Source: Patescibacteria group bacterium (GTDB lineage: Bacteria > Patescibacteriota > Minisyncoccia > Moranbacterales > UBA2206). From it: a DNA stretch of 64,000 bases. The stretch is taken from positions 5,884 to 69,883 of the forward strand of contig JAKLIG010000005.1 of NCBI GenBank assembly GCA_022709735.1. Reading direction: 5' to 3'. Shown piece after piece: positions 736 through 61,213 of this stretch; within the stretch, counting starts at the first letter, position 1, and each line of letters starts with the position of its first letter. The notes under the pieces were generated by a model. The model had not been told where the DNA came from. It saw only the letters and a program-made list of their open reading frames with translations, and searched no databases. Position numbers and translations under genes: made by a program.

Positions 736-3525
736 TCATAGGTATTTTCCAGTCCAGCTTCGTTTGCATTTTTTAAGCCCAACTGGAAATCCGGCATAAA
801 CTATTTCTCCACCTCCCCTTCCGCCTTCCGGCCCGAGATCAATTACCCAATCAGAATTTTTGACCACATCAGAATTATGCTCGACTACAATCACTGAATT
901 GCCTTTTTCTACGAGCGCATCCAAAACTTTCAAAAGTTTTTTGACATCTTCAAAATGAAGGCCAATTGTCGGCTCGTCTAAAATATACAAAGTTTTTCCG
1001 GTTGATTTTCGGGAAAGTTCCGCCGCTAATTTTATCCTCTGCGCTTCCCCGCCAGAAAGATTAGTTGCACTTTGCCCGAGTTTCAGATATCCCAATCCGA
1101 CTTCTTCCAGTGTTCGAAGTTTTTCCGCAATGAGCGGAGATTTTTTGAAAAATCTTAGCGCATAAGAAACGCTCATATCCAAAACTTGGGCAATGCTCAC
1201 CCCTTGATATTCAATATCCAAAGTTTTTTGATTATACCTGGTTCCTTGGCACGATTCGCACTTCACATACATATCCGGCAAAAGATGCATTTCAATTTTT
1301 TTTGTTCCATCTCCTTGGCACTGTTCGCATCGTCCACCTTTCATATTGAAACTAAATCGGCTGGCATCATAATTTCGATTTTTTGCTTCTTCGGTTGAAG
1401 CAAAAATTTCGCGAATAAGCGAAAAAACTCCGGTATAAGTGGCGGCGTTAGACCTAGGCGTCCGACCGATCGGACTTTGATCAACATTAATTACCTTGTC
1501 AATAAAATTCAAACCGGTTATTTTTTTATGTTTTCCGGGAATTTCTTTGGAACGAAAAAAATGCGCCGAAAGAGCTTTGGCTAAGACGTCAGAAATCAAA
1601 GTAGATTTTCCCGAGCCGGAAACACCCGTGATTGCCACAAATCTTCCCAGTGGAATTTCCACATCAATATTTTTCAAATTATGCTCGCTGGCAGAAATTA
1701 TTTTCAAATATTTTTGAGATTTTACGCGCGGTTTCTTTTTTTGAGAAATTTTTTCCCGACCGCTTAAAAAACAAGCGGTTTTAGTTTTGGAAGCTTTGAG
1801 CTTTTTCACATCTCCTTCAAAAATAATCCGGCCTCCTTCTTCACCGGCCCCCGGACCCATATCAATTATCCAATCCGCTTTTTCAATAATATCCTTGTCG
1901 TGCTCCACTACAATCAATGAATTTCCATTGTCTCTCAAAAATCGCATCGTTTGAATAAGTTTTTCCGTGTCCCGATTATGAAGACCGACTGACGGCTCGT
2001 CCAAAACATAAATTATTCCGGAAAGCTCCGAACTGATTTGCGTAGCGAGCCTGATTCTTTGCCCTTCTCCGCCAGAAATAGAATTGGCCCCGCGGAAAAG
2101 TTCCAAATATTCCAGACCGACATTTTTGAGCGCCTCCGCCTTCCCTTCCATTTCTTTGATGAGCGGGGCTGTTATTTCTTTTTTTGCTTCACTCATCGGT
2201 TCAACTGCCAAAGTTTTCAGAAAATTCAAAAAAGAATCTATGTCCAACTTCGCGATATCATCAATGGATTTTCCGGAAATCAAAACCGACAAATATTCTT
2301 TTTTCAATCTTTTGCCAAGACATTCCGAGCAAACCTTCTCCCGCATATATTTTTCAATTTCTTTTTTGAATGTGAAAGAAGATGATTCCTCATATTTATC
2401 CTTGATAAGAGAAACTACTCCCGGAAAAGAAATGCCCGCTTCTTCGTCTTTTAGTCCGTGAAAAATTATTTCTAAATTTTCCAGCGCTATTTTTTTTATC
2501 GGGTCATCCAAAGAAAAGCCTTTTTTTCTGCCTATTTTTTCCAAAACATCCAGATAATTTCCTTCGCTTCTTGTTCTTCCACCAAGTTTAGAAAGAGGCA
2601 ATACAGCGCCTTCCGAAAGAGACAGGTTTTTATTCGGAACGATGAGTTCCTCGTCTATTTCCTGAACAATTCCAAGCCCGGCGCAATGATCACAAGCACC
2701 TTCCGGACTGTTGAACGAAAAATGTTTGGGCGTAATTTCTGAAATTTTGAAAAAACAATTACTGCAGACAAAATCCCGATTATATATCCGGCTTTCTCCA
2801 TTGTCGATGCTCACCGCCATAAAACCTTTGCCGAGCTTGAATGCGGTTTCAATCGAATCCAAAATTCTTTCTTTGTCCGGATTTTTTTTCTTGAAAGTTA
2901 TTCGATCGACAACAATTTCCACATTGCCATTTAACAATTCTTCGGTGCTTGCCAGCGCTTCCGCGATAAGAATTGTCCGCCCGTTTATTTTTGCCCGCGC
3001 ATATCCTAATTGGCTGATATTTTTCAAAATTTCCCGAATATTTTTTCCATCCGGTCGAATTCTGGCCAGAATAGCTATTTGCGTATTATCCGGCGATTCT
3101 AAAATTTCGCCGATTATTTCCTGATTTTTTTTCCGCGCCATCGGCAATCGGCAATGCGGACAATATGGCAAGCCGGTTTTAGCAAACAAAATTCTAAGAT
3201 AATCATAAATTTCCGTCATTGTTCCAACTGTTGAACGAGGAGAACGGCTCAAACTTTTTTGATCAATCGAAATTGTCGGACTCAAATTTTCAATTTTGTC
3301 TGCATCGGGTTTGGCGGAAATTTCCAAAAATTGGCGAGCATAACTCGACAGAGATTCCAAATATCTTCGGTTGCCTTCCGCATTGATCACATCAAAAGCC
3401 AAGGTAGATTTTCCGCTCCCGGAAAGTCCGGTAATGACCACCAGTTTGTCGCGCGGAATTTCCACGCTTATATTTTTGAGATTATTCACTCTGGCGCCGG
3501 TAATTTTTATTTTGTCTTTTCTCAT
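736..3525 (-). CDS. uvrA: Excinuclease ABC subunit A (UvrA), full-length copy 1
   Basis: 940-aa ORF with two ABC ATPase modules (Walker [14 protein letters not shown] and [10 protein letters not shown]) and zinc-finger CxxC pairs. UvrA hallmarks [13 protein letters not shown] and LDEPSVGLH are present. The likely start is the internal [19 protein letters not shown] (3525) rather than 3558. Confidence 0.93.
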
Positions 3526-3632
3526 AAAAAATAAAATTGGAAAAATTAATTTAAACAAGCATTCTGGGTATTAATCTTACAGGAAATTTTTGAATTTGTC
3601 CACCCCCGCACTAAAATTGTTTTGCAAAGAAA

Positions 3633-3772: not shown

Positions 3773-6433
3773 TTACGGCGCCACTTCCTGCCAAGTACAG
3801 TCTTTTGTGCCAGTGCAAGTTATTGTTGGATTACATCCATCAGTATAATTTCCCACACAATGAGTTGCTCTGTCAGAATCAGAACATTCAGAATAGCCTG
3901 GATTTGGATTACAAGGCACTGAACTATCCGATGGCTTATCTCCTGAGCAACAAGCTTCTGGTGCCGTATTACCACCTGCCGTCAAACATATTGATGTTTG
4001 TGTTTGTGTTCCATTTGTACAAGTTCCAATACAACTACCATTTGGAATCCATCCCCAATTAGCACCTGCTGGACATATAGAAGCCTCACAAAAAGGAGAT
4101 TTTTTGCCTTCATACAATCCCAGACACTCCCATCGTGACGGACTCCCAACAGAAGGAAATGCAGGAAAAGGAGGGCCAACAGGGCTAATAGTTCCTTTGC
4201 TACAAAATGTATCCGTTCCAAAAACAGTTGCTGAAGCTGGATAAACTTTAGAAGCTGTTCCACATTCTCCATCCACTGGCGTAGCTGCTGCTTCTCTGGA
4301 AGCAGAACAATTCCCACTATCGATCCCGCCATAAATTCCAAAACACTTCCAGGTTACCGTTTGGCCCGGCTCGGGAAAACTCGGAGAATTAGCGCCAATA
4401 ATTCCCGACTGACAAAGTGAATAAGGGTTAAAGACGGTTGCCGAATAAGGATAAATCTTTCCGTTAGCACTGCCACAAGCACCATTTACCGGGGTACAAT
4501 TATCTCTTCTAGCTCTACAACTAGCAACGGCCCCTCCATACAAGCCTGAACAAGTCCAACTTAATGTTCTTCCATAAGTAGGAAAATTATTTTTATCTAT
4601 AAGATAATCATAGCTGGGGGTTGAACTTCCAACACTACAAAAAAAAGGACATATGCCAGGAAATTCAGTTTCGCCACAAGCATAAAATCTAGAAAGTGAA
4701 CTGCATTCTCCGGGAACTGGATGAATTGAAACCGAGTAATATGCATATGTATATATTGAATCGATTAATTCTTTGCTTGAATTATATACATTAGCCAAAA
4801 GATAAAAAGCATAATTTCCCACTGAAGATTGAGCAGTAAAATGAATCGGAGATGTGCCATTCCAAGACTTATTATTAACTTTCAAACTAACCATTGTTCC
4901 TCCAGGAAGAGATGTATTGCCTTTTATACTATAATGACCGTCTTCACTAGGAATATAATCAGCCTTATTTAAAACAAAACTGTAGCTGAATTGGATTCCG
5001 TTTTTATTATAATCCAGCCAATAAGTTGTGGCTTTTGCCTTGTTAATATTTACGAAAAAGAATGAAGAAAAAATAATACCTACCAGAAAAATCAGAAATT
5101 TTCCATTTCTTCTCTTTTTCAGAAGCCCAATATATATCATCACAACAAAAAATAGCGCAATAATTAAAATAATCAGAATAATTTTCGGCCAATTTTTATT
5201 AGCTATTTTATTTTTTTCTTTTTGGGGAGCAAGATTTTTAGCAGATTGGATACTTGGAGAAGAAACTGTCAAATTCTCACTAGCTAAAATATTTCCGCCC
5301 TCTCCCTTAATGGATAACTTAATTTGAGGATTGAGACATTCTGAAGTGATAGGAATTTCCAAATTTAAGCTGGAGTTAGCTGAATCAATTTTTTTAGATA
5401 CTAAGGCGGAACAATCGCTTTTTTCATTAGCGATCTTAAATTCTGCCAGAAAATTTTGAGAATTGGAAGACACTCCCGTCCAAAGCAAATTTATCTTGGC
5501 TATATCCCCTTTTTGATAGAAATCTTTATCCAATTTTATATTTTGAATAATCGCCATATCGCCTTTCAAAATATATCGGAAAATTATTTTATTGGAAAAA
5601 TCTTGTCCGTCTTTTTTGAGCGTTAAAATATCCAGATATTCCTGGGGAGTGTTAGCCTTGGGAATATTCATAGTAATATTTTTTTTCTCTCCCGAAGACA
5701 GTATTATAGGAAAATTTCCATCAATTTCTTGATCTGCCACCAAACCACCATAATCAATTTTTTGTGTTTCAAAAACCGGAATAAGCGTTATTTTTTCTTT
5801 TGCTTGATTTTGAACTGTGCAATTAAGCAACAGAGCGTCATCGTTTTCTAAAATAATATTTTGAATATTTTGCGACAATGAGAATTTTTCGGAAAATTTA
5901 CCTTCACCATTTTTTGTTTGCAAAAAACAGCTGACTGGATCAATAAAAACCATCGCCACAGATTGGCTTAATTTCAAATCTCCTACTTTTTCAAAAGCAT
6001 ATAACAATCCGGAAGGACTCTTAGCCTTGATCCAAAGCTGAAAATTCCCAGCTAAATTGCTTGGTGCGATATATTCAATTTCTTTAGTAATACTTTGCTT
6101 TGGCAAAAGAGTTATTGAATCAGAAAAAGCTTTAAAATCAATAATACTGTTGGTTTTATCTTTATTCTCTCTAGTAAGTTCGAAAGAATAATTTATTCCC
6201 GGCTGGACAACGCTGTCATCATTTGTGAGTTTGAAACTTGCCCGAAGGCTGTTTTTATTTTGAGAAATTACCTTAACATTACTAATATTCACATCTGCCA
6301 CAGGTATCGTTTCAGCTTCAGATGAAAAAGCAGTTTCTTCTGCCACTGGCAAAGTTTCCGCCGAGCAAACACTAAAAAATCCCGTCGAAAAAAGACCGAG
6401 CGTAGCAACAGTGAAAATAAATATTTTTTTCAT
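3773..6433 (-). CDS. Cys-rich surface protein paralog P1 (signal peptide, ectodomain, TM hairpin, Cys-repeat C-domain ending ...CTWQEVAP)
   Basis: 886 aa. N-terminal signal peptide MKKIFIFTVATLGLFSTGFFSVCSA. Central hydrophobic helix, KKRRNGK loop, second hydrophobic helix, then NINKAKA. C-terminal region holds three tandem ~45-aa Cys modules (CG.A.GK.YP.SATVF....C..G.......FP..G....W.C.G.YGG). The N-domain aligns with P3. Confidence 0.75.
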   Translation of the reverse strand: MKKIFIFTVATLGLFSTGFFSVCSAETLPVAEETAFSSEAETIPVADVNISNVKVISQNKNSLRASFKLTNDDSVVQPGINYSFELTRENKDKTNSIIDFKAFSDSITLLPKQSITKEIEYIAPSNLAGNFQLWIKAKSPSGLLYAFEKVGDLKLSQSVAMVFIDPVSCFLQTKNGEGKFSEKFSLSQNIQNIILENDDALLLNCTVQNQAKEKITLIPVFETQKIDYGGLVADQEIDGNFPIILSSGEKKNITMNIPKANTPQEYLDILTLKKDGQDFSNKIIFRYILKGDMAIIQNIKLDKDFYQKGDIAKINLLWTGVSSNSQNFLAEFKIANEKSDCSALVSKKIDSANSSLNLEIPITSECLNPQIKLSIKGEGGNILASENLTVSSPSIQSAKNLAPQKEKNKIANKNWPKIILIILIIALFFVVMIYIGLLKKRRNGKFLIFLVGIIFSSFFFVNINKAKATTYWLDYNKNGIQFSYSFVLNKADYIPSEDGHYSIKGNTSLPGGTMVSLKVNNKSWNGTSPIHFTAQSSVGNYAFYLLANVYNSSKELIDSIYTYAYYSVSIHPVPGECSSLSRFYACGETEFPGICPFFCSVGSSTPSYDYLIDKNNFPTYGRTLSWTCSGLYGGAVASCRARRDNCTPVNGACGSANGKIYPYSATVFNPYSLCQSGIIGANSPSFPEPGQTVTWKCFGIYGGIDSGNCSASREAAATPVDGECGTASKVYPASATVFGTDTFCSKGTISPVGPPFPAFPSVGSPSRWECLGLYEGKKSPFCEASICPAGANWGWIPNGSCIGTCTNGTQTQTSICLTAGGNTAPEACCSGDKPSDSSVPCNPNPGYSECSDSDRATHCVGNYTDGCNPTITCTGTKDCTWQEVAP

Positions 6434-13335: not shown

Positions 13336-14739
13336 CTATTTTTTGTCCACAGCTCGCCTAAATTCTTTGTTTCTTAGTTTTCGATGATACCCAATCGCAA
13401 AACGATGCGCTTTATCGCGGATTTGCTGAATTAAATTCAAGGAAATTTCGGGAACTGATCCGAATTTTCGAATATCCAATTTTTTCCGGCTCGGTCCCTT
13501 GGCCACCGCCATAATCGGAATTTCTAGTTTATAATTTCGAAGGATTTTCCGCGCCATATTCAAATGTCCCGCTCCGCCATCAAGAAGAATTAGATTTGGA
13601 AGTGTCCAGCTGTTTTGAAATCTCCTAATTAGTATTTCCCTCATCGCTCCGACATCATTGGCACCGGAAATAGTTTTTATCTTGAATTTTCGATATTCAT
13701 TTTTGTTAGGACCCATTTCACCTAAAGAATTATCAAATACCACCATTGATCCGACATTATGACTTCCGGAAATATTGGAAATATCATAACCCTCGATTCG
13801 CATCTGTTTCGTAGGGAACAAAAATTTTTGTCCCCTGCTGTCTGAAATTAACGCCACATCTCGAATATGTTGCAACGCAAAAATTTTATTTCTTATATCC
13901 AGCGCTTTTTCAAATTCTTCCTTTTTTGAGAATTCGTTCATTTCTTTTTTTAGCGTATTTATCAGATTTTTTTTCTTCCCTTCTAAAATCATTCGAATTC
14001 CCCTGATATTTTTCTGATAATCAAATGCCGAAATAGCGCCATCATACGGCCCAGGGCAAAGTCCAATTTGATAATCCAAACAGCCTTTTTCCGAATTTTC
14101 TTTTTTATTGTGATAGGGAAAAATTTTTCGAAGAATTTTGAGCGCAATTTCAATTTGTTTTTTGGAAGTATACGGCCCATAAATAGCTTTTAGCTTATAG
14201 CTTATAGCTTTTAGGCTTTCACTATTTTTTAGAAATTGGTAATTGGAAATTGGTAATTTATTGAAAATTGGAAATTGTCCGCCGGAGGCGGATCCGCCTT
14301 TGGCGGAAAAATTGAAAATTTTATCAAGTTCCCTGCCTCGCGCAATTAAAATCCTTGGAAATTCATCTTTCGTAATCACAACATAAACAAATGATTTGTC
14401 ATCTTTCCCATCAATATTGTATTTGGGCTGGAGTTTTTTAATTAAATTTTGCTCTAAAATATAGGCTTCTAGAACCGTATCGGTTTTTCTGATTTCAACA
14501 TTTGACACCTCATGAATCATAATTTCAATCGGCCGACCGCTAAAATATGTAGGGGTTTGATTTATCAAACCCTTTTCTGTTTTGGGTTCAATAAATTGAA
14601 CCCCTACAAAATATGAAGAAACCCTATCCTTCAAACTCGTCGCTTTCCCCACATACAAAACATCCCCGGTTTTATTTTTGAAGATATAAACTCCGGGAGA
14701 ATTGGGAAATTTAGCAATTTTACTCTTTAGGCTTGACAT
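13336..14739 (-). CDS. uvrC: Excinuclease ABC subunit C (UvrC), short form lacking the C-terminal (HhH)2 domain, with an in-frame low-complexity insertion
   Basis: N-terminal GIY-YIG (GVYIFKN...VLYVGKA). UVR-like segment and RNase-H-like endonuclease region (RIEGYDISN ... RDKAHRFAIGYHRK). The ORF ends soon after, at 467 aa versus roughly 600 typical. Confidence 0.8.
   Translation of the reverse strand: MSSLKSKIAKFPNSPGVYIFKNKTGDVLYVGKATSLKDRVSSYFVGVQFIEPKTEKGLINQTPTYFSGRPIEIMIHEVSNVEIRKTDTVLEAYILEQNLIKKLQPKYNIDGKDDKSFVYVVITKDEFPRILIARGRELDKIFNFSAKGGSASGGQFPIFNKLPISNYQFLKNSESLKAISYKLKAIYGPYTSKKQIEIALKILRKIFPYHNKKENSEKGCLDYQIGLCPGPYDGAISAFDYQKNIRGIRMILEGKKKNLINTLKKEMNEFSKKEEFEKALDIRNKIFALQHIRDVALISDSRGQKFLFPTKQMRIEGYDISNISGSHNVGSMVVFDNSLGEMGPNKNEYRKFKIKTISGANDVGAMREILIRRFQNSWTLPNLILLDGGAGHLNMARKILRNYKLEIPIMAVAKGPSRKKLDIRKFGSVPEISLNLIQQIRDKAHRFAIGYHRKLRNKEFRRAVDKK
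14186..14320. repeat. Mosaic simple-repeat insertion inside the uvrC coding sequence (AGCTTTT/AGCTTAT heptamers + GAAATTGG repeats + GC-rich palindromes CCGCCGGAGGCGG / CCGCCTTTGGCGG)
   Basis: The same heptamer satellite occurs at 59661-59720 and 30624-30653, and GAAAATTG-type repeats occur at 640-735. Here they are translated in frame (…GGSASGGQFPIFNKLPISNYQFLKNSESLKAISYKLKAI…). Confidence 0.6.
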
Positions 14740-15360: not shown

Positions 15361-15441
15361 TTGTCATCCTCGCGAAAGCGAGGATCCAGTCTTAAATCTT
15401 TTGGTTTCTACACTAGATTCCCGCTTCCGCGGGAATGACAA
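15361..15441. repeat. TTGTCAT...ATGACAA element copy E1 (two perfect 8-bp hairpins inside)
   Basis: TTGTCAT-CCTCGCGAAAGCGAGG...ATTCCCGCTTCCGCGGGAAT-GACAA. Same end architecture as 19592-19654 and 21335-21390. Confidence 0.5.
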
Positions 15442-15455
15442 AAATATTTATTTTT

Positions 15456-18347
15456 TTATTTTCTATCCAGAATTTCCCTCAAATACTTCCCCGTCCAACT
15501 TTTTTTATAATATTTCGCCACTTCTTCCGGCGTGCCGGAAACAATTAATTTTCCTCCCTTATCCCCGCCTTCCGGCCCGAGATCAATTATCCAATCAGCA
15601 GTTTTGATGACATCCATATTATGTTCAATGACCACGACCGTGTTTCCCGCGTCCACCAAACGATTCAAAACTTTCAATAATTTTTTTATATCGTCAAAAT
15701 GCAGTCCGGTCGTTGGTTCGTCTAAAATATAAAGTGTATCGCCAGTCGCGCGCCGAGAAAGTTCGGTCGCTAATTTTATTCTTTGCGCTTCTCCGCCGGA
15801 AAGCGTTGTCGCACTTTGACCAAGCTGGATATATCCAAGTCCAACATCTTCGAGCACTGCCAACTTATCATGAATTTCTGGAAAATTTTCAAAAAATTCC
15901 CGCGCATCACTCACCGTCATTTCCAAAACTTCCGCAATATTTTTTTCTTTATATTTCACTTTCAAAGTTTCACTGTTATATCTTTTTCCGCCACAAACAT
16001 CGCACGGCAGATACACATCCGGCATAAATTGCATTTCGATTTTGAGATATCCGTCTCCCTGGCAATTATCACATCTTCCCCCAGAAATGTTAAACGAAAA
16101 TCTTCCGGGAGAATATCCTTTAGTCTTGGCATCTTTCGTCATCGAAAAAAGTTCGCGAATTGGAGAAAAAAGTCCGGTATAAGTGGCCGGATTGGAACGC
16201 GGGGTGCGCCCAATCGGACTTTGGTCAATCATAATAACTTTGTTGATATAATGCGCTCCGGCAATTTCATTATGACGCCCCGGTCGATCTAATGAACGCA
16301 TAATATTTCTTGCCAGAGATTTATAAAGTATTTCTTCTACTAGAGTTGATTTTCCGCTTCCGCTTACTCCGGTCACGCAAGTCAAAGCTTTCAGAGGAAA
16401 TTCCACCGTAATATTTTTTAGATTATTTTCCCGCGCTCCGCGAACAATGATTGATTTTTTGTTTTTCATACTCCGCCTGAAGCTCGGAATTTCAATTTTC
16501 AGTTCTTTTCGAAGATATTTGGCCGTTAATGATTTTTTATTTCTCAAAACTTCTTCTGGCAAACCTTGTGCCACAATTTCTCCGCCGTGACGCCCCGCGC
16601 CCGGACCGATATCGACTAAATAATCCGCTGCTAACATGGTTTCTTCATCATGCTCGACAACTATAAGCGTATTTCCAGTATCCCGAAGCTTAATTAATGT
16701 TTCTAAAAGTTTAGCGTTATCCCGCGCATGCAGACCAACTGATGGTTCGTCTAAAATATACAAAACTCCAACTAACTGCGATCCGATTTGTGAAGCCAAG
16801 CGAATTCTTTGCGCTTCTCCGCCAGCCAAAGTGCTGGCACTTCGACCCAGCGTCAAATATCCCAATCCGACATTTTCCAAAAAACTCAAGCGGTTTTGAA
16901 TTTCTTTTAAAATTCTTCCAGAGATCAATTCTTCTTTTTTATTTAATTTTAATTCTCGAAAAAATTCCAGAGATTCAAAAATACTAACATCAGAAATTTG
17001 AGATATATTTTTTCCGCCGACACTTACTAACAAAGTTTCTTTTTTATATCTAGAACCATTGCACATTGAACAAGGATTTTGCGACATATATTTTTCAATG
17101 TCAGTTCGGACCGCATCCGATTGCGTTTTTCGATATCGATCTTGCATATATCCCACCGCTCCTCGCCAGCTCATATTATATTTCCAAACCGCTCCAGTCT
17201 TACTCTTAAGTGTCACTGGGATTTGTTCGGCCTCATCTTCCAAAATCATATCTTTTGCTTCCGGCGCGCCAAATAGCAGTATATTAAAATCATCTTCGGA
17301 TAAATCACGCAGGCGGACATTGTCAGAAATATGGAAATGTTTGCAAACTGCGCGAAGAATTGTCCCTTGCCAATTATTTTTTTTATAACTCCACGGCATA
17401 ATTCCCCCTTCGGAAATAGTTTTATTTTTGTCTGGCGCCACAAGCGCTGGATCAATTTCTTTTTTTGTTCCAAGCCCTTCGCAAGCCGGACACGCGCCAT
17501 ACGGACTGTTGAAGGAAAATAACCGCGGTTCAAGTTCGGGAAATTCCACTTCATGAATCGGACAAGAAAGATTTTGGTTAAATATAATTTCTTTATTATT
17601 TTCTTTTTTTGATTTTAAGATTTGGGATTTAACTTTCACAAGCCCTCCTGAAAGTTTCAACGCTTTTTCCACTCCCTCAAAAATCCTAGAAATATTTTTA
17701 TCATTAATTTCCACTTCATCAATCAAAATATCAATGCTATGTTTTTTATATCTCTCAAGTTTTATTTCACTTTTTATTTTTAAATTCAGTTCAATTTTTT
17801 TTCCGTTAACATACGCCCAGGAAAATCCGCGCTGAAACATTTCAGCCATCATTGTCGAATATTCTCCTTTTCTTTGGCGGACAATCGGAGAAAGAATTTC
17901 TATTTTGCATTCTCCGCACATCTCAAGAATCCTATCCACAATTTCATCAGTGGAAAGTTTGGTAATTTCCCGATTACAAACAGGACAATGAGGAATTCCA
18001 ATTTTGGCATAAAGCAAGCGAAGATAATCTTGGATTTCTGTGACCGTCCCGACAGTTGATCGTGGATTGTGCGAAGCCGCTTTTTGATCGATAGAAATTG
18101 CCGGTGAAAGTCCTTCGATATAATCCACATCTGGCTTGTCTATTTGCCCCAAAAATTGCCGGGCATATGAAGACAAACTTTCTAAATACCGCCTTTGCCC
18201 TTCGGCAAAAATGGTATCAAAAGCCAGCGTGCTCTTTCCTGAGCCGCTGATTCCGGTGAAAACTATAAACTTGTTTCGAGGCAATTCAAGATTAATATTC
18301 TTAAGATTGTGCTCCCGCGCGCCTCGAATTATTAATTTATCATGCAT
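15456..18347 (-). CDS. uvrA: Excinuclease ABC subunit A paralog (second full-length UvrA, 963 aa)
   Basis: [18 protein letters not shown]..., Walker [14 protein letters not shown] and [23 protein letters not shown], Zn-finger cysteines. Clearly distinct in sequence from copy 1. Confidence 0.9.
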
Positions 18348-18509
18348 AAATGCAAAAAACTTCCCCTTTTGAGGTACTTAGTATTAAATTATTACCTTTC
18401 AATCATATTACACTTTATGCTATAAATATATTCTTGGCAAGAAACTTAATATTGAAAATCCAAATGACAAAATCTCAATATCCAATAAATTTCCAAATCT
18501 CAATTTTAA

Positions 18510-18887
18510 TTATTTTTTATTCTTGGAGCTATTTATTATAGATGAAAAAATCCAAACAAATTTTTGAGCTTCTTTATACAATTTTCTACAATTTTCCCTT
18601 CTATCAGAATTAGCTTTAGCTATCATCCTGAACCAATGCATACTTTCCTTTGACTCTTTTCGGCAAATTCCAATTTTATTTTCAAAATCTTTTTTGGAAA
18701 CTGCGCCATCAGCTTCCATGTAATTTGCTCCTATGCTCGTTCCAGATCGCACAATCTGATTTACAAGTGGCTTATTAATTTCATTATGCGGTAAAGAACT
18801 AACAAATTCAATTACATCTTCCCCGAATTTAGCAGTCCTTTCGATTAAATCATAATTACTTTTTTTACTTGGGATTTTATTTGTCAT
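18510..18887 (-). CDS. Four-helix-bundle protein (formerly '23S rRNA intervening-sequence protein' family)
   Basis: Diagnostic motifs SGTSIGANYMEADGAVSKKDF and CRKESKESMHWFRMI. The 125-aa length fits the family. Confidence 0.8.
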   Translation of the reverse strand: MTNKIPSKKSNYDLIERTAKFGEDVIEFVSSLPHNEINKPLVNQIVRSGTSIGANYMEADGAVSKKDFENKIGICRKESKESMHWFRMIAKANSDRRENCRKLYKEAQKFVWIFSSIINSSKNKK

Positions 18888-18910
18888 TGGGATTTTTAAA
18901 TTGGGATTTT

Positions 18911-19579
18911 CTATAAACTAATATATTTTACCGGCAGAACTTTCTTGAAAATTCCGGCAATCAAAACTGAATCAGAAGAGTGGATAAAAATCGGCTGATG
19001 AATCGTGTTGGAAGACCGCGGGAAAAGTCCGATGATTTCCTCACTTACTTTTTTATATCTCTTGATCGTCGCCATACCATTTATCACTGCCACGACAATT
19101 TTCCCTTCCAACTCTTCACTTTTACCATAATCATATTTTTCAAAAATAACATAATCGCCGTCATTGATGCCGTCTTTGTCCATCGAATCGCCCAAAGTTT
19201 TGACTGCGAAAAGTTTAGCGCTGTCTGCTCCACGAAAAAGCGCTTTGGAAATTTGCAAAAATCCGTCCACATTATCTTCGGCATAAGCCAGCGCTTCTCC
19301 GCAAGAAGCCAGGCCATAAACCGGAATGGAAAAAATATTTTTGAAATTAGCAAAGCTTTCATTTTCTACCAAATATATTTTTCTATCTTTGTCTCTTTTG
19401 ATCAGATCTTTTTTCTCCAGCGCTTCAATCACCTGCATCACAGATTTCAAACTATCTTTCACGCCTTGCGATTCCAAATATTTGTGCAATTTATAACTGG
19501 TCGGATTTTCTCCGCGCTGTTCGATCAGCTCGCGGATGTTTTCCAAAATACTTTGTTGCTTAGCTGTAAGTGTTGGCAT
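18911..19579 (-). CDS. lexA: LexA-family repressor (winged-HTH + S24 peptidase)
   Basis: C-terminal S24 Ser/Lys dyad context (AVKTLGDSM ... ATIKRYKK). The N-terminal winged-HTH region is judged from general similarity, not a specific motif. It lies adjacent to the uvr genes. Confidence 0.8.
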   Translation of the reverse strand: MPTLTAKQQSILENIRELIEQRGENPTSYKLHKYLESQGVKDSLKSVMQVIEALEKKDLIKRDKDRKIYLVENESFANFKNIFSIPVYGLASCGEALAYAEDNVDGFLQISKALFRGADSAKLFAVKTLGDSMDKDGINDGDYVIFEKYDYGKSEELEGKIVVAVINGMATIKRYKKVSEEIIGLFPRSSNTIHQPIFIHSSDSVLIAGIFKKVLPVKYISL

Positions 19580-19591
19580 AACAATTTTGAT

Positions 19592-19654
19592 TTGTCATGC
19601 TGAATTTATTTCAGCATCTTCTTAGTTGATCCTGGAACAAGTTCAGGATGACAA
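19592..19654. promoter_or_regulatory. TTGTCAT...ATGACAA element copy E2 immediately upstream of lexA; contains palindromes TGCTGAATTTATTTCAGCA and CCTGGAACAAGTTCAGG (candidate operator)
   Basis: Perfect 7-bp inverted repeats with a 5-nt spacer, 13 nt upstream of the lexA start. Confidence 0.4.
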
Positions 19655-19813
19655 AATATTTAATTATTTACAGTGATATGATAGCACTTCTCAAATATCA
19701 CTGCAACTCCCCCTGTGGATAACTCCACCTGCCTGATTTTTCTATCTTATTATCAAGCCTCAACTGTTTGAATTAAATAATCTTTATTCTTAGTTGTGAA
19801 AAAATATAACAAA

Positions 19814-19842
19814 TAAAAAAATCCCCCGCCTAAGCAGGGGAT
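19814..19842 (-). terminator. Rho-independent terminator for the DsbA-like gene (ATCCCC-loop-GGGGAT followed by T7 on the minus strand)
   Basis: Hairpin followed by an A7/T7 run. Confidence 0.6.
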
Positions 19843-19856
19843 TCTTACTTCTTGCT

Positions 19857-19917
19857 TCTTACTTCTTAATTCTTAATTCTTAATTCTTAATTCTTAATTC
19901 TTAATTCTTAATTCTTA
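19857..19917. repeat. Heptanucleotide microsatellite (CTTAATT)x8 overlapping the stop codon of the upstream gene
   Basis: Eight perfect tandem 7-bp units; the TAA stop of 19915..20946 lies inside the array. Confidence 0.9.
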
Positions 19918-20946
19918 ATTACAGCTTCCGCCTTGCGTTGTCGCAGTAGCAGAACTTAGCGCCTTAGCACATTCTGCTGGCGCAGTATTAAACGCATCGC
20001 AAATCGCTTTTTTATATTCTTCGGAATTTCCGTATTTATAAACTGCTTTAGTAGAAACACCGTTGATCAACATCGTTGGCGAACCGCTCGCTCCCGCTTC
20101 AGTCGAAAGTTTTTCATCGGCTTTCATAAGAGTCGCTCCTTCCGCTTTCACGCAAGCAGAAATTTTAGCTGAATTTAGTCCAACGCTTTTTGCGCCCGCT
20201 TCCCAACAAGCTCCGTCAGTTCCGCAATTTTTGTTAACATAAGCCACAAAATTCATCCACTTATCTTTGCCAAAATATTTGAGCACGCAGGCCTCTCTTT
20301 CATTTTGCGCGACTTCTTTTTCTCCATGCAAAGAATTAATTGTGTCTCCACTCGAGCTCACGATATAGCGAAAATTAAAATCAACTTTGTTTTTGAGAAG
20401 TTCATAAACCGATTTCATCGTGTCCTCCGCTTTGTTTCCAAATGGGCAAAAACTCATTACATAAAGATCAACTTTAGGCTTTTCTGCTTTGGGAACTTCC
20501 TTTTCTGGCTCGGCCGCTGCTTGCTTTTGTTCAGCGTTCTTCTTTTTTATTTCTGCTATATCCATCACTTGAGGAAAGAATTTCTTTCCGTCCAATGACA
20601 AATAAGCATCGATCTCTTGTTTTTGCTGTCCTTCCCCCACCGCAACTTTTATCTTAAACATTCCATTCTCTTTGGCGACTTCTCCTATTTCTGCTTTTTC
20701 TCCCTCTTGCATCAAATTATTATTGATAAAATCTTCTACTTGCGCCTTAGCTTCTTTTTGCGTCAGATTATTTTTCTTCCAAACCATTCTGTAATAACCT
20801 AACCCTCCAATGATGATGATAAAAATCAAGACTCCAATTATTTGAGGTAAAAACTTCTTATACTTTCCGCAAAAGTCTTTCCCGCAAAAACATTCTCCTT
20901 TTTCGCAGTTGCACACTTCGGCAGTTTCCTTTTTTTCTGTTTCCAT
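19915..20946 (-). CDS. Membrane-anchored DsbA-like thiol:disulfide oxidoreductase with an N-terminal Cys4 zinc-ribbon-like segment
   Basis: N-terminal CNCEKGECFCGKDFCGK, one TM segment, thioredoxin-fold CxxC (SFCPFGNKAE), and a DsbA-like C-terminal GSPTMLINGV. Confidence 0.6.
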   Translation of the reverse strand: METEKKETAEVCNCEKGECFCGKDFCGKYKKFLPQIIGVLIFIIIIGGLGYYRMVWKKNNLTQKEAKAQVEDFINNNLMQEGEKAEIGEVAKENGMFKIKVAVGEGQQKQEIDAYLSLDGKKFFPQVMDIAEIKKKNAEQKQAAAEPEKEVPKAEKPKVDLYVMSFCPFGNKAEDTMKSVYELLKNKVDFNFRYIVSSSGDTINSLHGEKEVAQNEREACVLKYFGKDKWMNFVAYVNKNCGTDGACWEAGAKSVGLNSAKISACVKAEGATLMKADEKLSTEAGASGSPTMLINGVSTKAVYKYGNSEEYKKAICDAFNTAPAECAKALSSATATTQGGSCN

Positions 20947-20982
20947 TTTTTTTAAATTAATTAATAATTATCCAGTTTTTAT

Positions 20983-21011
20983 ATTATAAATAATCGTTGA
21001 ATTTAACGCAA
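20983..21011 (-). promoter_or_regulatory. Sigma70-like promoter (TTGCGT-17-TATAAT) for the DsbA-like gene
   Basis: Minus-strand TTGCGT at 21006-21011 and TATAAT at 20983-20988 with a 17-nt spacer, about 40 nt upstream of the start. Confidence 0.45.
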
Positions 21012-21102
21012 GCGATGAGAAAATATCAATTTTTTGACAAATTTAAGGGGAGATGACTATGTCAGCTCCCCGGTTACGTGATTCATGGTTGATTTCCTTT
21101 TT

Positions 21103-21306
21103 TTAGTTTGCTTGTTTTCCCCACTTTGCCCAATCGGGAGTGAGAATTTCCTTGAATTTTCTGATGCAATGTTCTGCACCATTTAAAAAAACTTCGATTT
21201 CCTTATCTCCATTGATAATATTCATTGTCCCAGAAAGATCATTATTCCTAATGATGGTGTCTGCCAATGACATATATCCCCTTTGTATAACCACTCTTTC
21301 TGTCAT
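21103..21306 (-). CDS. Hypothetical small protein (67 aa)
   Basis: Only a complete ORF with no recognisable family. Confidence 0.35.
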   Translation of the reverse strand: MTERVVIQRGYMSLADTIIRNNDLSGTMNIINGDKEIEVFLNGAEHCIRKFKEILTPDWAKWGKQAN

Positions 21307-21334
21307 AATTCCACCTCCTCTTAAAAAACATTAT

Positions 21335-21390
21335 TTATCATCCCGAGCTTAGAAAGAATTTTTTATTCTTCGCTATGCTCGGAACGACAA
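21335..21390. repeat. TTGTCAT-family element copy E3 (TTATCATCCCGAGC ... GCTCGGAACGACAA)
   Basis: Its ends resemble E1 (TTGTCATCCTCGCG ... GCGGGAATGACAA). Confidence 0.4.
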
Positions 21391-22678: not shown

Positions 22679-23434
22679 CTATCCCAGCAGTTTGCTCATA
22701 GTCCATAGCGCTTCATAGAAAGCTCGCATAGTATCGGCAAACGATTTGCTTTCAATAACGAAACTGTAATTTTCTTCAATAGGAGCGAAAGAAGCAACGA
22801 CATTGCCATAAATAAGCAAAGAATTTTTTAGTTTCATATTCATCGGCAATTCGCGCGCTTCGCGATTGGTCGCTTTGAGAGTTTCCGGTGAATAATAGCG
22901 ATGCAGATTTTTTTGTCCGTAATTCCTAAGAATTTTGCTATGCATGCCTTTCTCTTTCACTTTTTCAATATAATGCTCTACAAATTGTTTTCCTAAAATA
23001 ATCGTAGTCGCTTCATGAGCAATCGTCCATAATAATTCCTTCTGCTTGGACTCCAAGGCATCCAGCCAAATTTTTTTCATTCCTTCTTTTCCGCGATAAT
23101 ATTTAAAATTAGTGGAAAATTTTTCTGATTCAAATATTTTCTTGAGACCAGGCATTGATTCTACCAGCGTGTTTTGATTTCTTTTTTGGATTTCTTCCAA
23201 AATTTCAGGACTTTCCGCAATAAACAATTTTCTTTTCCCGGATTGTGATTGACTTACCAATCCAAGCTGAATAAGTTTTTCGACAAAATTATATACAGTT
23301 GTTCTTTTGACCTTAGCCTTAACAGCAATATCCTGGATTGATCCGGCTCCCAATTCCAAGCAAGCTAAATAAATTTTAGATTCTTTTTCCGAAAACCCCA
23401 AATTCCTGATAGAAGCGATTATTTTTTGATTCAT
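22679..23434 (-). CDS. TrmB-family HTH transcriptional regulator
   Basis: N-terminal TrmB-type wHTH (LGFSEKESKIYLACLELGAGSIQDIAVKAKVKRTTVYNFVEKLIQLGLV). Length 251 aa. Confidence 0.55.
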   Translation of the reverse strand: MNQKIIASIRNLGFSEKESKIYLACLELGAGSIQDIAVKAKVKRTTVYNFVEKLIQLGLVSQSQSGKRKLFIAESPEILEEIQKRNQNTLVESMPGLKKIFESEKFSTNFKYYRGKEGMKKIWLDALESKQKELLWTIAHEATTIILGKQFVEHYIEKVKEKGMHSKILRNYGQKNLHRYYSPETLKATNREARELPMNMKLKNSLLIYGNVVASFAPIEENYSFVIESKSFADTMRAFYEALWTMSKLLG

Positions 23435-24058: not shown

Positions 24059-26065
24059 TTATTTCATCTGCAATTTTCGCAGCTCCCCGATTTCATCCCG
24101 AATGATCGCAGCTTTCTCGAACTCAAGATTTCTCGCCGAGTCTTTCATTTCACGCTCTCGCTGTTTGATATATCCCGCGATATCTTCCAAATTTTCCAGT
24201 TTCACAAAATCTTTGGAAATTTCCGGCTTGATTTCATGATCCACAATTGATTGAATTTTTTTCTGGATAGTTTTAGGCGTGATATGATGCTTCCTGTTAT
24301 ATTCCATTTGTAATTTTCTTCGTCGATTTGTTTCTGAAATCGCCCGCTTCATAGAACCGGTCAAGTTGTCGGCATATAAAATCACTTTTCCGCGAACATT
24401 TCTGGCTGCTCGTCCAATTGTTTGAATAAGTGAAGTTTCGCTTCGAAGAAATCCTTCTTTGTCGGCATCCAGTATTGCCACAAGCGAAACTTCCGGAAGA
24501 TCCAACCCTTCCCGAAGAAGATTTACTCCCACCAAAACATCGAACTCTCCTCGTCGAAGTTTTTCCAAAATTCTGATGCGATCCAGTGTGTCAACACCAC
24601 TATGCAAATATTCCGATTTTATTTTAGATTCTTTCAAAAATTCCGCCAGATCTTCCGCCATCCTTTTGGTCAGAGCTGTGATCAAAACTCTTTCCTTTCT
24701 CTCAATTATAATTTTAATTTCTTCTAAAACATTTTTAACTTGTCCTCGCGCCGGCTTAATTTCAATTTCCGGATCAATGAGTCCAGTCGGCCTAATTATC
24801 TGTTCCGTAATTCCGCTTTCCACTTTCGACTTTCGACTTTTAACTAGCTCGTAAGAGCCTGGCGTCGCTGAAGTAAAAATCACTTGGTTGATTTTCTTTT
24901 CAAATTCCGGAAACTTCAAAGGCCGGTTGTCAAAAGCACTCGGCAGACGAAAACCATTTTCTACCAAAGATTTTTTTCTAGAATAATCTCCGCTAAACAT
25001 TCCCCCGATTTGCGGAACAGTCACATGTGATTCGTCAATGACTAATAAAAAATCTTTCTCAAAATAATCAATTAGGGTATAGGGCGCTTCGCTCGCTTTT
25101 CTCCCGGAAAGATAGCGGGAATAATTTTCAATCCCGTTGCAATAGCCGATTTCTTTCATCATTTCAATATCTTGGCGAGTCCTGCGCGACAATCTTTCCG
25201 CTTCCAGAAGTTTTCCATTTTTTTTGAGATATTCCACGCGTTCTTCCATTTCTTTTTGGATTTCACCCAATGATTCTGCCATAACCGGTTCCGGCACTAC
25301 GAAATGCTTGGCGGGATAAATCAAAGTTTTTTCTAATCCGCCAGCTGGCGGACCCAATTCTTCCCCCGTCAAAAAATCATATTCGGAAATTTTGCTGATA
25401 GAATTATTTTCTAAAGTTATTCTGGTTATTACTTCTCTACCAGGCGTGATTATTTCCAAAGTATTTCCGGTGAGCCTAAATTTTCCGCGAGACAAAATAT
25501 CCGACCGGATATATTGCATGTCGATTAATTTTTTCACAATTTCATCGCGATCAAATTTTTCTCTTATTTTAATTTCCAACGAAATATCCCGATAATATTC
25601 CGGACTCCCCAAACCATAAATGCAGGAGACTGAAGCGCAAATAATCACATCCCGCCTTGAAAGCAAAGCGGAAGTAGCCGCATGGCGAAGCCGGTCAATT
25701 TCATCATTGATCTGAGCTTCTTTTTCAATATATGTGTCACTGGAAGCGATGTAGGCTTCCGGCTGATAATAATCATAATAACTCACAAAATATTCCACTG
25801 CATTTTTTGGAAAAAAAGTTCGAAATTCTTGGGCGAGTTGCGCTGCTAAAGTTTTGTTCGGCGCGATAACCAAAGTCGGTTTCTGCACTTTTTCAATCAC
25901 ATTCGCAATCGTAAAAGTCTTGCCTGATCCCGTCACGCCCAAAAGCGTCTGGAATTTTTTTCCAGCCTTTAATCCTTCCGTCAGCTTTTTAATCGCTTTC
26001 GGCTGATCACCCTCCGGCTTGAATTTTGAATTAATTTTAAATTTCATACCTATATACTCCCTCAA
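24059..26065 (-). CDS. uvrB: Excinuclease ABC subunit B (UvrB)
   Basis: GDQP..AI, Walker A GVTGSGKTFT, helicase motifs, C-terminal UVR domain (DEIGELRKLQ). The start is possibly the internal MKFKINS at 26047. Confidence 0.93.
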   Translation of the reverse strand: MREYIGMKFKINSKFKPEGDQPKAIKKLTEGLKAGKKFQTLLGVTGSGKTFTIANVIEKVQKPTLVIAPNKTLAAQLAQEFRTFFPKNAVEYFVSYYDYYQPEAYIASSDTYIEKEAQINDEIDRLRHAATSALLSRRDVIICASVSCIYGLGSPEYYRDISLEIKIREKFDRDEIVKKLIDMQYIRSDILSRGKFRLTGNTLEIITPGREVITRITLENNSISKISEYDFLTGEELGPPAGGLEKTLIYPAKHFVVPEPVMAESLGEIQKEMEERVEYLKKNGKLLEAERLSRRTRQDIEMMKEIGYCNGIENYSRYLSGRKASEAPYTLIDYFEKDFLLVIDESHVTVPQIGGMFSGDYSRKKSLVENGFRLPSAFDNRPLKFPEFEKKINQVIFTSATPGSYELVKSRKSKVESGITEQIIRPTGLIDPEIEIKPARGQVKNVLEEIKIIIERKERVLITALTKRMAEDLAEFLKESKIKSEYLHSGVDTLDRIRILEKLRRGEFDVLVGVNLLREGLDLPEVSLVAILDADKEGFLRSETSLIQTIGRAARNVRGKVILYADNLTGSMKRAISETNRRRKLQMEYNRKHHITPKTIQKKIQSIVDHEIKPEISKDFVKLENLEDIAGYIKQREREMKDSARNLEFEKAAIIRDEIGELRKLQMK

Positions 26066-26085
26066 TTTTAAAATTTTGTCTAATA

Positions 26086-34096: not shown

Positions 34097-34100
34097 TTGT

Positions 34101-44304: not shown

Positions 44305-45543
44305 ATGCCAATTTTTAATTTTCCTACTAAAAAAAACATCTCTATTTTAGCTCTTGGCGCTGAATCAGCCGGAAACTTTTCCGTTTTCAATAAAGGAAAA
44401 ATTTATTTTTCCGAAGATTTTGGAGATTTGCTAGAAGAAAAAAACTGGAAAAAATTTCAGTCGGCAGTTTTGAAATATTTAAAAGATAATAAAATTAAGC
44501 CTGAAATAATTCTGACTGACCTTCACCCTCTTTTTAAAACTACCCTCTGGGGGAAAGAATTAGCCAAAAAATATGGCGCAAAACATATTCCAGTCCAGCA
44601 TCATATATCCCACACTTTTTCTTCTGTCGGCGATAGCTTCCTTAAGACACCCGGTGTCTTGAGTTTTAGACACCGGGTGTCTAAAACTTTTTATGGGATT
44701 GCTTTAGACGGCACCGGTTTTGGAACTGATGAAAAAATTTGGGGTGGAGAAGTTTTTAAGGGGAAAATGTCCGCAAGACAAAAGGGGTTAAGTGTTGAAA
44801 GAATTGGCCATCTTGAAAATCAAATTATGATTGGTGGAGATTTAGCAATAAAAGAGCCAGCCAGAATGCTAATTAGTATTTTGAATAAGTTTTTAAGTAA
44901 AAAAGAAATTTATTCTTTCGTTAAAAAATATTATACCCAAAACGAATTTGAATTAATTTATAATCAGCTAGCGCAAAATTTCAATTGCCTTGAAACTTCC
45001 AGCGCTGGAAGAGTTTTGGACGCCGTTTCGATTCTTTTAGGATTTTGCGGCAATGCTAGAAAATACAAGCACGAACCAATTGATAAATTAGAAAAAAATT
45101 CAACAAAACCATATACAGATTTAAGGCCTAAAATAGATAATAACTGCGAATTACAAATTACTTACTTATTTAATTACTTAATAAATTACTTGCATAAACG
45201 GGATAGAAAACGCCTCGCCGCCACTGCCCAGTTATATATTGCTCAAGGTTTATATAAAATAATTGAATTAGCGCGTCATCCTGATCCGCCAACTGGCGGA
45301 GAAGGATCTGCCTACAAAAATCTCAAGCTTAATAATTGTCGCAAAACAAAAAGTATCACAAAGCAGATTCTTCACAGCACTTCGCTTGTTCAGAATGACG
45401 ATGTTTTTATTTCCGGCGGCCTGACTAATAATAAAATAATTTCTTCTTTTTTGGAATCTAAGGGCGCTTATATAAACAAAAAAATCCCGCGTGGCGACGC
45501 CGGAATTTCTTTCGGACAATTGGTCTACTATTTATCTTCCTAA
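44305..45543 (+). CDS. hypF: HypF-like carbamoyltransferase, C-terminal Kae1-like domain only
   Basis: GIALDGTGFGTDEKIWGGE (HypF ALDGTGYG.DG.IWGGE) and C-terminal SGGLTNNKI...PRGDAGISFGQL (HypF SGGVFQN...P.NDGGISLGQ). Acylphosphatase, Zn-finger and YrdC domains are absent. Confidence 0.5.
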   Translation: MPIFNFPTKKNISILALGAESAGNFSVFNKGKIYFSEDFGDLLEEKNWKKFQSAVLKYLKDNKIKPEIILTDLHPLFKTTLWGKELAKKYGAKHIPVQHHISHTFSSVGDSFLKTPGVLSFRHRVSKTFYGIALDGTGFGTDEKIWGGEVFKGKMSARQKGLSVERIGHLENQIMIGGDLAIKEPARMLISILNKFLSKKEIYSFVKKYYTQNEFELIYNQLAQNFNCLETSSAGRVLDAVSILLGFCGNARKYKHEPIDKLEKNSTKPYTDLRPKIDNNCELQITYLFNYLINYLHKRDRKRLAATAQLYIAQGLYKIIELARHPDPPTGGEGSAYKNLKLNNCRKTKSITKQILHSTSLVQNDDVFISGGLTNNKIISSFLESKGAYINKKIPRGDAGISFGQLVYYLSS

Positions 45544-45646
45544 CATTCGATGTTAGGAATAATTGCTACTACATATAGGCGAATGGTAGTAAAAATAAAA
45601 CAAGGCGGGAACAATAATTTTACTTGTTCTCGCCTTGCGCAACTTG

Positions 45647-46270: not shown

Positions 46271-46390
46271 TTAGAATGAGAATTTTAAAGTACGACATCT
46301 GACCAGTGAAATACTGCTCGAAATCTCGAGTTAACCTGCGATCGCAGGATAAAATCAGATATCCTACTGTATCATACTTTTTATTATTTG

Positions 46391-48428: not shown

Positions 48429-48624
48429 TTTTTAAATAAGCTTTTATTTCTTTTGCATTATCTTTATCCATTTTTTCAATTGCAAATCCGGCATGTACCA
48501 TTACATAGTCGCCAATTTTTGCCGAAATTAGACTAATATTTATTTCTTTTTTCATGCCTTGAAAATCAACTATTGCCAGTTGATTTTTGATTTTTATTAT
48601 TTTTCCAGGAATTGCCAAACACAT
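48418..48624 (-). CDS. hypC: Hydrogenase assembly chaperone HypC
   Basis: Starts MCLAIPGKII. The ORF-track N-terminal extension (MQGCSILFLL...) is encoded by repeat element D1. Confidence 0.8.
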   Translation of the reverse strand: MCLAIPGKIIKIKNQLAIVDFQGMKKEINISLISAKIGDYVMVHAGFAIEKMDKDNAKEIKAYLKNEV

Positions 48625-48660
48625 GCCAATTTTGTCTGCGAACATAGTGAGCAGGAACAA

Positions 48661-48788: not shown

Positions 48789-48794
48789 GTCAAC

Positions 48795-51170: not shown

Positions 51171-51175
51171 AAATT

Positions 51176-60757: not shown

Positions 60758-60771
60758 TTGATTTATGCGAC

Positions 60772-61199: not shown

Positions 61200-61213
61200 A
61201 TAATTTATGCAAC

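Follow-up and report, generated by a model that had tools for sequence, protein, structure and literature searches.

TGTC-tagged hairpin dimers beside lexA and uvrA in a Moranbacteria genome: probable members of the CGTC class of repetitive extragenic palindromes

Repetitive extragenic palindromes (REPs) that carry a CGTC tag, which is often TGTC and may also be CCTC, have been described as a superfamily (Di Nocera, De Gregorio & Rocco 2013, BMC Genomics 14:522, PMC3733652). Their stems are 8-9 bp long and in nearly all cases have A and T as their first bases, their loops are of 4-5 nt, and their tail approximates CCA; dimers are mostly head to head, with the tags outside, no transposase is associated with them, and the members include Neisseria dRS3 and Rickettsia RPE-4/6 (PMC3733652). 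In Neisseria, the NTS consensus CGTCATTCCCGCGMAVGCGGGAATCYRG was defined alongside a degenerate Ssn-related motif (SRM) (Nat Commun 2025, PMC11893778). The Ssn proteins (cd10448) are small GIY-YIG nucleases that bind and cut NTS/SRM hairpins only as single-stranded DNA (ssDNA); cleavage by SsnA relies on the 3 nt that precede the palindrome and binding chiefly on the C that directly follows it, and the NTS-ssnA-NTS arrangement has been likened to an insertion sequence (PMC11893778). In the 64-kb stretch of DNA analysed here (contig JAKLIG010000005.1, GC about 36%; hereafter the window), three short palindromic elements, E1, E2 and E3, all lie outside genes. E1 and E2 are likely to be head-to-head dimers of the (T/C)GTC-tagged REP class and gene-less miniatures of SRM-ssn-SRM cassettes, and not a LexA operator.

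Anatomy of E1 and E2 and comparison with described repeats

The elements had been proposed as a family with shared ends and different insides, and the sequences of all three were confirmed at the following positions.

15361-15441, no strand: E1, a head-to-head dimer with the tags outward and a 23-nt spacer
15362-15389, plus strand: left unit of E1 (E1L), with a TGTC tag, an 8-bp stem ATCCTCGC/GCGAGGAT, the loop GAAA and the tail CCAG
15413-15440, minus strand: right unit of E1 (E1R), with a TGTC tag, the stem ATTCCCGC/GCGGGAAT, the loop GGAA and the tail CTAG
19592-19654, no strand: E2, a head-to-head dimer in the 5' untranslated region (5'UTR) of lexA, 12 nt upstream of the ATG
19593-19621, plus strand: left unit of E2 (E2L), with a TGTC tag, the stem ATGCTGAA/TTCAGCAT, the loop TTTAT and the tail CTTC
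19625-19653, minus strand: right unit of E2 (E2R), with a TGTC tag, the stem ATCCTGAA/TCCAGGAT with one mismatch, the loop CTTGT and the tail CAAC
21335-21390, no strand: E3, a doubtful, degenerate relative that forms a single long hairpin with the tag-like ends TTATCA and CGACAA

E1 reads TTGTCA-TCCTCGC-GAAA-GCGAGGA-TCCAG, the 23-nt spacer and CTAGA-TTCCCGC-TTCC-GCGGGAA-TGACAA. It lies 15 nt beyond the uvrA stop codon, with convergent genes on either side, and is predicted to fold into two hairpins as DNA and into one long hairpin as RNA (z = -7.2 against shuffles). E2 reads TTGTCA-TGCTGAA-TTTAT-TTCAGCA-TC ... GA-TCCTGGAA-CAAG-TTCAGGA-TGACAA, and its predicted RNA fold was also far more stable than those of shuffles (z = -3.3). 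The sequence TTGTCATCCT is common to E1L and the reverse complement of E2R.

Both halves of E1 and of E2 consist of a directional tag that runs straight into a hairpin. In each unit a GTC tag, left unpaired, is followed by a stem of 8 bp whose first pairs are A-T and T-A, a loop of 4-5 nt and an invariant C after the stem. What had been taken for a 7-bp terminal inverted repeat is the TGTC tag together with the first two stem pairs of two head-to-head, REP-type units. The pattern TTGTCAT-N30-60-ATGACAA occurred once in the window and in none of 100 shuffles; the heptamer TTGTCAT by itself was not enriched in the window (9 and 6 copies). The signal resides in the tag plus the adjoining hairpin.

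Judged by this anatomy, E1 and E2 belong to the CGTC-tagged class. E1 fits the CGTC-1 layout (8-bp stem, 4-nt loop), and E2 fits the layout of an 8-bp stem and a 5-nt loop when compared with families CGTC-1 and CGTC-2, E2R with one mismatch. As in the described repeats, the dimers are head to head with spacers of 10-100 nt, they are sited between convergent genes or beside coding regions without an adjacent transposase, and GTAG-tagged REPs coexist with them. Each of the four half-sites in E1 and E2 had TGTC as its tag, as did all 23 clean units from relatives; TGTC is a known variant but here the only one. Tails were CCA (E1L), CTA (E1R), CTT (E2L) and CAA (E2R), so that only the first C is invariant and those of E2 deviate from CCA. 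Two further differences are that the copy number looks low and that the host is a member of Candidatus Moranbacteria (Patescibacteria), a phylum outside the five listed for these repeats (PMC3733652). A literature search found no paper that links REPs to Patescibacteria beyond incidental co-mention.

The invariant GTC tag and the C after the stem correspond to the positions needed for cleavage and binding by SsnA. E1L was an exact match, and the only one in the window (simulated mean 0.05), to the SRM pattern HGTCWYN(0-2)YYVSBRHN(0-5)WNVSBRGN(0-2)RNCYNB. E1R differed from the NTS consensus at two positions (one at the start of the tag, the other in the loop), where the NTS test allowed at most one mismatch. 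The E1 unit pattern, GTCATYCYCGC-N4-GCGRGRATC, was found in at least 120 stretches of IMG/VR; among the matches listed, GC spanned 0.32-0.72, and the sequence GTCATTCCCGCG-NNN-GCGGGAATC(C/T)AG was common to almost all of them. The form prefixed with TTGTCAT was present in at least 120 metagenome stretches, and the E2 unit pattern was present in 117 stretches of IMG/VR (GC 0.28-0.71; loops CTTGT, CTCGT and TTTAT).

Rickettsia RPE-4 and RPE-6, which are classed as CGTC-4 and CGTC-1, also invade small genomes and may insert in frame, including in uvr genes. In contrast, E1, E2 and E3 are extragenic, and the in-frame insert in the uvrC gene of the window is a GTAG-type doublet. E1 and E2 are of a kind that is already known (CGTC REP, NTS or SRM) and do not constitute a new family of miniature inverted-repeat transposable elements (MITEs).

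E3 is at best a degenerate relative of the TGTC-unit family, and its membership is doubtful. Its ends, TTATCAT and ACGACAA, each carry one mismatch, and it was undetected by either covariance model of the unit (E≤10 and E≤5). It lies between a promoter-like site, TTGACT-N17-TATAAT, and the ribosome-binding site of a 67-aa open reading frame (ORF). E3 resembles the TGTCATYCCGAGC-type units of locus L134, which suggest a related but degenerate type. Neither this ORF nor the 105-aa ORF beside E1 had a Pfam match or GIY-YIG features, and the 67-aa ORF had no orthologue among the relatives.

Distribution across Moranbacteria and at orthologous sites

LexA orthologues with 63-92% identity came from metagenome-assembled genomes (MAGs) of Candidatus Moranbacteria / Moraniibacteriota (Patescibacteria). 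The comparison set consisted of 61 loci around lexA orthologues in GTDB genomes, sampled at about 20 kb per genome; together with the window it comprised about 0.98 Mb from 62 genomes. A census of hairpins with an 8-bp stem, at most one mismatch and at least three G/C gave 3555 hairpins. Among these, the commonest 5' tags that were not homopolymers were GTAG (50 hairpins, 5.2 expected) and TGTC (40 hairpins, 11.4 expected; 3.5-fold, P = 3e-11).

All 23 clean TGTC units retained an invariant TGTCAT...ATC, including A5 and T6, and four of seven stem pairs covaried among them (n = 23), a pairing statistic that is partly circular because the units were picked as hairpins. The stems were of a few types: ATYCCCGC, whose loop is GNAG; ATNCYGAA, whose loop is of the CTTGT type; and ATTCCGGA. 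The clean units mostly formed tag-outward dimers of 55-170 bp; dimers in this arrangement were present in L127, L129, L137, L142, L148, L171, L177 and L181.

A leave-out covariance model was built from 19 units of other Moranbacteria genomes and used to search the 64-kb window with filters off. The only matches were the four half-sites of E1 and E2, with E values of 1e-7 to 4e-5 (E1L, 37 bits, E = 2e-7; E1R, 38 bits, E = 1e-7; E2L, E = 6e-6; E2R, E = 3.6e-5). The opposite strands of these half-sites scored E values of about 1, so that each unit was detected in one orientation only. The proposal of shared ends with different insides therefore held for E1 and E2 and failed for E3, which has mismatched ends and escaped the search. 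These results established the TGTC units as a directional, covarying family in many Moranbacteria genomes.

Logan contig L002, which encodes the same LexA, was identical across the region, and strain variation was therefore uninformative. Across the window and the 61 loci, the lexA leader carried E2 in two of 62 cases, namely the window and L127, where an orthologous, E2-like dimer is present. The site was empty in L129 (90% LexA identity), L131, L132, L149, L150 and L155-158, and L144 had a different TTGTCAT...GTGACAA element. Leaders with unrelated palindromic families were those of L124-126, L128, L133, L134 and L151 (CGAAT-rich), and also L141, L142 and L148.

The uvrB leader was uninterrupted (...ATTGAGGGAGTATATAGGT-ATG) in the window (26048-26066), L125 and L151. 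Between the same flanks, three different TGTC tag-outward dimers were found in L129 (5991-6059), L126 (about 5560-5690) and L177 (18358-18425), which makes the uvrB leader a second insertion hotspot beside the lexA leader. On the 3' side of uvrA there was a TGTC dimer in the window (E1), L148 and L142, a GTAG doublet in L138 and L165, and uvrC directly next in L127, L130, L136, L140 and L143. No target-site duplication was seen at the lexA or uvrB junctions examined. Filled, empty and differently filled sites at lexA, uvrB and uvrA indicate that whole dimers come and go as units; the dimers are gained and lost whole at orthologous sites, without target duplication.

Ssn-like genes and competing explanations

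A hidden Markov model (HMM) was seeded with small GIY-YIG ORFs located between NTS-like units in fetched contigs. It recovered ten small GIY-YIG genes, of about 97 aa and with PF01541 only, and otherwise matched only uvrC-unrelated contigs and a truncated gene of L166 that is discussed below. In L197 (GC 0.40) the Ssn-like gene has CGTCATTCCTGCGAATGCAGGAATCCAG on one flank and CTGGATTCCCGCTTCCGCGGGAATGACAA, in inverted orientation, on the other; CTGGATTCCCGCTTCCGCGGGAATGACAA is identical to E1R at 28 of 29 positions; in L214 it is flanked by TGTCATCCTTGCGAAAGCGAGGATCCAG units, one mismatch away from E1L. The E1-type units around both genes have their tags outward. In the Parcubacteria contigs L310, L320 and L326 the gene is bounded, again tags outward, by TGTCATTGCGAGG-type units of 40 nt (TGTCATTGCGAGGAGC...GCAATCTC), and in L445 the gene is followed by E2-type units. 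Homologues with about 60-65% identity, the three of L310, L320 and L326 among them, are annotated in MAGs of Patescibacteria, Parcubacteria and Uhrbacteria. TGTC unit types are physically associated with Ssn-like genes in related and in other low-GC genomes, and because identical unit types flank these genes, E1 and E2 look like gene-less miniatures of such cassettes.

Two sets of candidates were rejected. The NTS-flanked ORFs of viral contigs L060 and L073 proved to be phage genes and not nucleases. A truncated small GIY-YIG gene at the end of L166, which matched the Ssn-like HMM, was dropped, as its full-length relative, P0121, differs in the C-terminal motif from the recovered Ssn-like proteins; P0121 is presumably COG2827/UPF0213-like. 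At L166 (13921-14120) and at the P0121 loci L304-L309, the small GIY-YIG gene (presumably COG2827-like) is preceded by a conserved structured sequence in which a GC hairpin with a TGTC tag accompanies a tRNA-like 5' half, and DNA conservation upstream of the gene extends to distant contigs. A crude regular expression for small GIY-YIG ORFs had no match in the window or the relatives. In the gap between map and ruvX, where L326 has its Ssn cassette, the window holds a membrane-protein ORF and no remnant of a cassette.

If E1 and E2 are miniatures of this kind, the gene-less dimers would derive from SRM-ssn-SRM cassettes. An Ssn-type nuclease supplied in trans would bind the palindrome and its 3' C in ssDNA, and the same nuclease would nick next to the GTC tag; its action would underlie the spread of the dimers and effects on recombination. 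Through insertion of E2 into the 5'UTR of lexA and of E1 into the 3'UTR of uvrA, both mRNAs probably gain stable hairpins as a by-product. It is a more speculative proposal, and on balance an unlikely one, that the gene-less head-to-head dimers are true miniature transposable elements, driven by a GIY-YIG ssDNA nuclease and, in Moranbacteria, inserting preferentially into the short sequences just before and after genes for the SOS response and excision repair (lexA, uvrB, uvrA).

Several observations weigh against the assignment to the REP/SRM class and against its extension to Ssn-driven movement. Neither the 64-kb window nor the 61 loci (about 20 kb per genome) yielded a gene for an Ssn-like protein, a RAYT (REP-associated tyrosine transposase) or another transposase, a difference from the ssn-associated NTS/SRM. 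Copy number is low, with two clean dimers in 64 kb, and clustering is below the scale seen in Neisseria. E1R misses the SRM pattern by one loop base, and E2L, E2R and E3 have no match to it, the stems of the E2 units being outside the strict pattern. E3 forms one long hairpin and not two units, and the unit model does not fit it. The circularity in the pairing statistics noted above belongs here as well. Ssn proteins are known to cut ssDNA and to modulate transformation, and are not known to transpose anything (PMC11893778).

Four other explanations were weighed against the same evidence. The first is a primary role at the RNA level, in which selected UTR hairpins stabilise or attenuate the mRNAs of lexA, uvrA and neighbouring genes; the original prediction had likewise offered structured cis-regulatory RNAs as one option. 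Each element is in fact sited in a UTR (5' for E2 and E3, 3' for E1), the predicted folds of E1 and E2 are much more stable than those of shuffles (the z scores given above), and REPs are reported to act as mRNA stabilisers in other bacteria (PMC3733652). Against such a role, close relatives differ in whether a given gene has a dimer, there was no match to an Rfam family, and the conserved positions are a strand-specific tag and a 3' C, which are relevant to an ssDNA nuclease, whereas SsnA is inactive on RNA (PMC11893778). A dedicated regulatory RNA is therefore improbable, and any regulatory effect of E1, E2 or E3 on mRNA would be incidental.

It is distinctly improbable that the dimers are REPIN-like doublets moved by a RAYT, that is, by a Y1 HUH transposase of the IS200/IS605 type, and not by Ssn. 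The architecture is the same as that of REPINs, each being a non-autonomous mobile unit of two inverted hairpins with a short conserved tag 5' of each, and REP doublets with a GTAG tag, a separate family, are also present both in the window and in its relatives. Mobilisation of CGTC repeats by RAYTs was left open by Di Nocera et al., but their survey found no association of these repeats with RAYT genes (PMC3733652). Here GTC takes the place of GTAG as the tag, the window ORFs include no Y1 transposase, no association with a RAYT was seen, and the flanked genes that were found are GIY-YIG genes.

Classical MITEs, deletion derivatives of an insertion sequence of the DDE type that have 7-bp terminal inverted repeats and move by cut and paste with target-site duplication, are very unlikely to account for the family. 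Inverted ends, short elements and filled versus empty orthologous sites would all suit them, and that part of the earlier proposal of miniature mobile elements which concerned mobility was borne out at lexA, uvrB and uvrA. Against classical MITEs, no junction examined had a target-site duplication, and the conserved portion is a directional tag and hairpin in each half, not a simple inverted repeat. Moreover, no transposase is present in the window, and the gene found between such units elsewhere encodes a GIY-YIG nuclease and not a DDE enzyme. The last explanation, that E2 is an operator, is taken up with the lexA promoter.

The lexA promoter, neighbouring genes and other repeats

The following features were located upstream of lexA.

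19672-19722, minus strand: lexA promoter region, conserved across Moranbacteria and outside the repeat family
19714-19722, minus strand: DnaA box, a perfect match to the consensus TTATCCACA, immediately 5' of the -35 box
19701-19706, minus strand: -35 box, TTGCAG
19678-19683, minus strand: -10 box, TATCAT
19672-19688, minus strand: palindrome AGTGCTA-TCA-TATCACT over the -10 box, likely the real LexA operator

Alignment of the regions upstream of lexA gave a conserved module of (G)TTATCCACAG, about 8 nt, TTGCAGTGATA, about 8 nt and AGTGMTA-GAA-TAWCACTGTAA. A GTGATA-N3-TATCAC palindrome was present within 500 nt of lexA at 46 of the 61 loci and the DnaA box at 33, and the distance from palindrome to ATG varied from 40 to 306 nt. 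Within the window the conserved -10 palindrome occurred only at lexA; elsewhere in it neither this palindrome nor the DnaA box was above chance. The palindrome at 19672-19688 is the likely LexA operator in Moranbacteria, and the DnaA box may link lexA expression to DnaA. An extra CAGTGATA half-site was noted 3' of the -35 box.

E2 sits between this conserved promoter and the ATG, in the 5'UTR. The palindrome TGCTGAA-N5-TTCAGCA in E2 is real, lies 12 nt from the lexA start in a neighbourhood of uvrC, two uvrA genes and uvrB that was confirmed, and had been put forward as an operator, LexA motifs being known to vary widely among phyla (PMC8565304); it is nevertheless extremely unlikely that this palindrome is the LexA operator and the family a set of SOS boxes near DNA-damage genes, given that E2 is downstream of the conserved promoter, that most orthologues lack it (including L129, with 90% protein identity), that E2 stems occur far from lexA in L129, L159, L171 and L177 as well as in the 117 viral-contig stretches (GC 0.28-0.71), that a different palindrome is kept over the -10 box in 46 of the 61 loci, and that the stems of E1 are quite different. 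Nor did the suggestion of E2 motifs upstream of other damage genes find support, as the covariance model detected E2-type units nowhere else in the window. Because it lies downstream of the promoter, is absent from most leaders and has stems that are widespread elsewhere, E2 is a lineage-specific insertion of a generic repeat and not the LexA operator.

The genes of the region are listed below.

736-3558: second uvrA
13336-14739, minus strand: uvrC
15456-18347, minus strand: uvrA
18510-18887, minus strand: gene of the 23S-rRNA-IVP family (PF05635), between lexA and uvrA
18911-19579, minus strand: lexA (LexA_DNA_bind and Peptidase_S24), with the ATG at 19579 and E2 in its leader
19915-20946, minus strand: GILT-like gene
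21103-21306, minus strand: 67-aa ORF
22679-23434, minus strand: TrmB-like regulator
24059-26065, minus strand: uvrB

The remaining window ORFs of at least 150 aa were mostly housekeeping genes, six of them without a Pfam match; no transposase, RAYT or single-domain GIY-YIG gene was found among ORFs of this length. Rfam (at the gathering threshold) and tRNA scans of the window gave no matches. The order lexA-IVP-uvrA was repeated in Logan contig L002. Genes for hydrogenase maturation (HypF-like, HypE/AIRS-like and HypD) and NuoF/NuoG-like iron-sulfur genes form a cluster at 44305-51061, which seems unusual for genomes of this group.

This genome contains repeats of both the GTAG and the TGTC superfamily. 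A GTAG...CTAC REP doublet lies in frame inside uvrC at 14549-14607 (GTAG-GGGTTCAAT-tt-ATTGAACCC ... GGGTTTGAT-..-ATCAAACCC-CTAC) and lengthens the protein by about 22 aa, placed behind the conserved SYF of the GIY-YIG domain; doublets of this family also occur 3' of uvrA in L138 and L165. A second in-frame, repeat-derived insert in uvrC, at about 14250-14320, consists of TTGTCCGCCGGAGGCGGATCCGCCTTTGGCGG and AATTGAAAATTG-like sequence. UvrC orthologues had different inserts or none at both positions, which points to insertion hotspots. Other hairpins tagged GTAG, with stems of 9 bp and loops of 2 nt, were found at 34099, 47235-47290 and 50149, and include a GTAG...CTAC palindrome near the start of an AIRS/HypE-like ORF.

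Two copies of a CGAAT-rich palindromic element of about 85 nt (60765-60850 and 61205-61293) occupy leader sequences, those of the gene for ribosomal protein S5 and of the next gene upstream. By eye only, in unaligned sequences, they are similar to the lexA 5'UTR repeats of L124-126, L128, L133, L134 and L151. AT-rich intergenic arrays of AATTGAAAATTG-like inverted and direct repeats were present at 615-733, 51064-51184 and 58270-58368.

Assignment of E1 and E2 to the (C/T)GTC-tagged REP / SRM class would extend that class to a reduced Patescibacteria genome, and it averts a mis-annotation, since the palindromes of E2 beside lexA are not the SOS box. The comparison instead reveals a likely lexA operator of Moranbacteria and an unusually expandable lexA leader, and the clean filled and empty sites provide evidence on how repeats without a known transposase spread. 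Should the dimers prove to be Ssn-driven transposable elements with a preference for SOS and excision-repair genes, ssDNA-hairpin elements would be physically coupled to the ssDNA-sensing SOS circuit in Moranbacteria.

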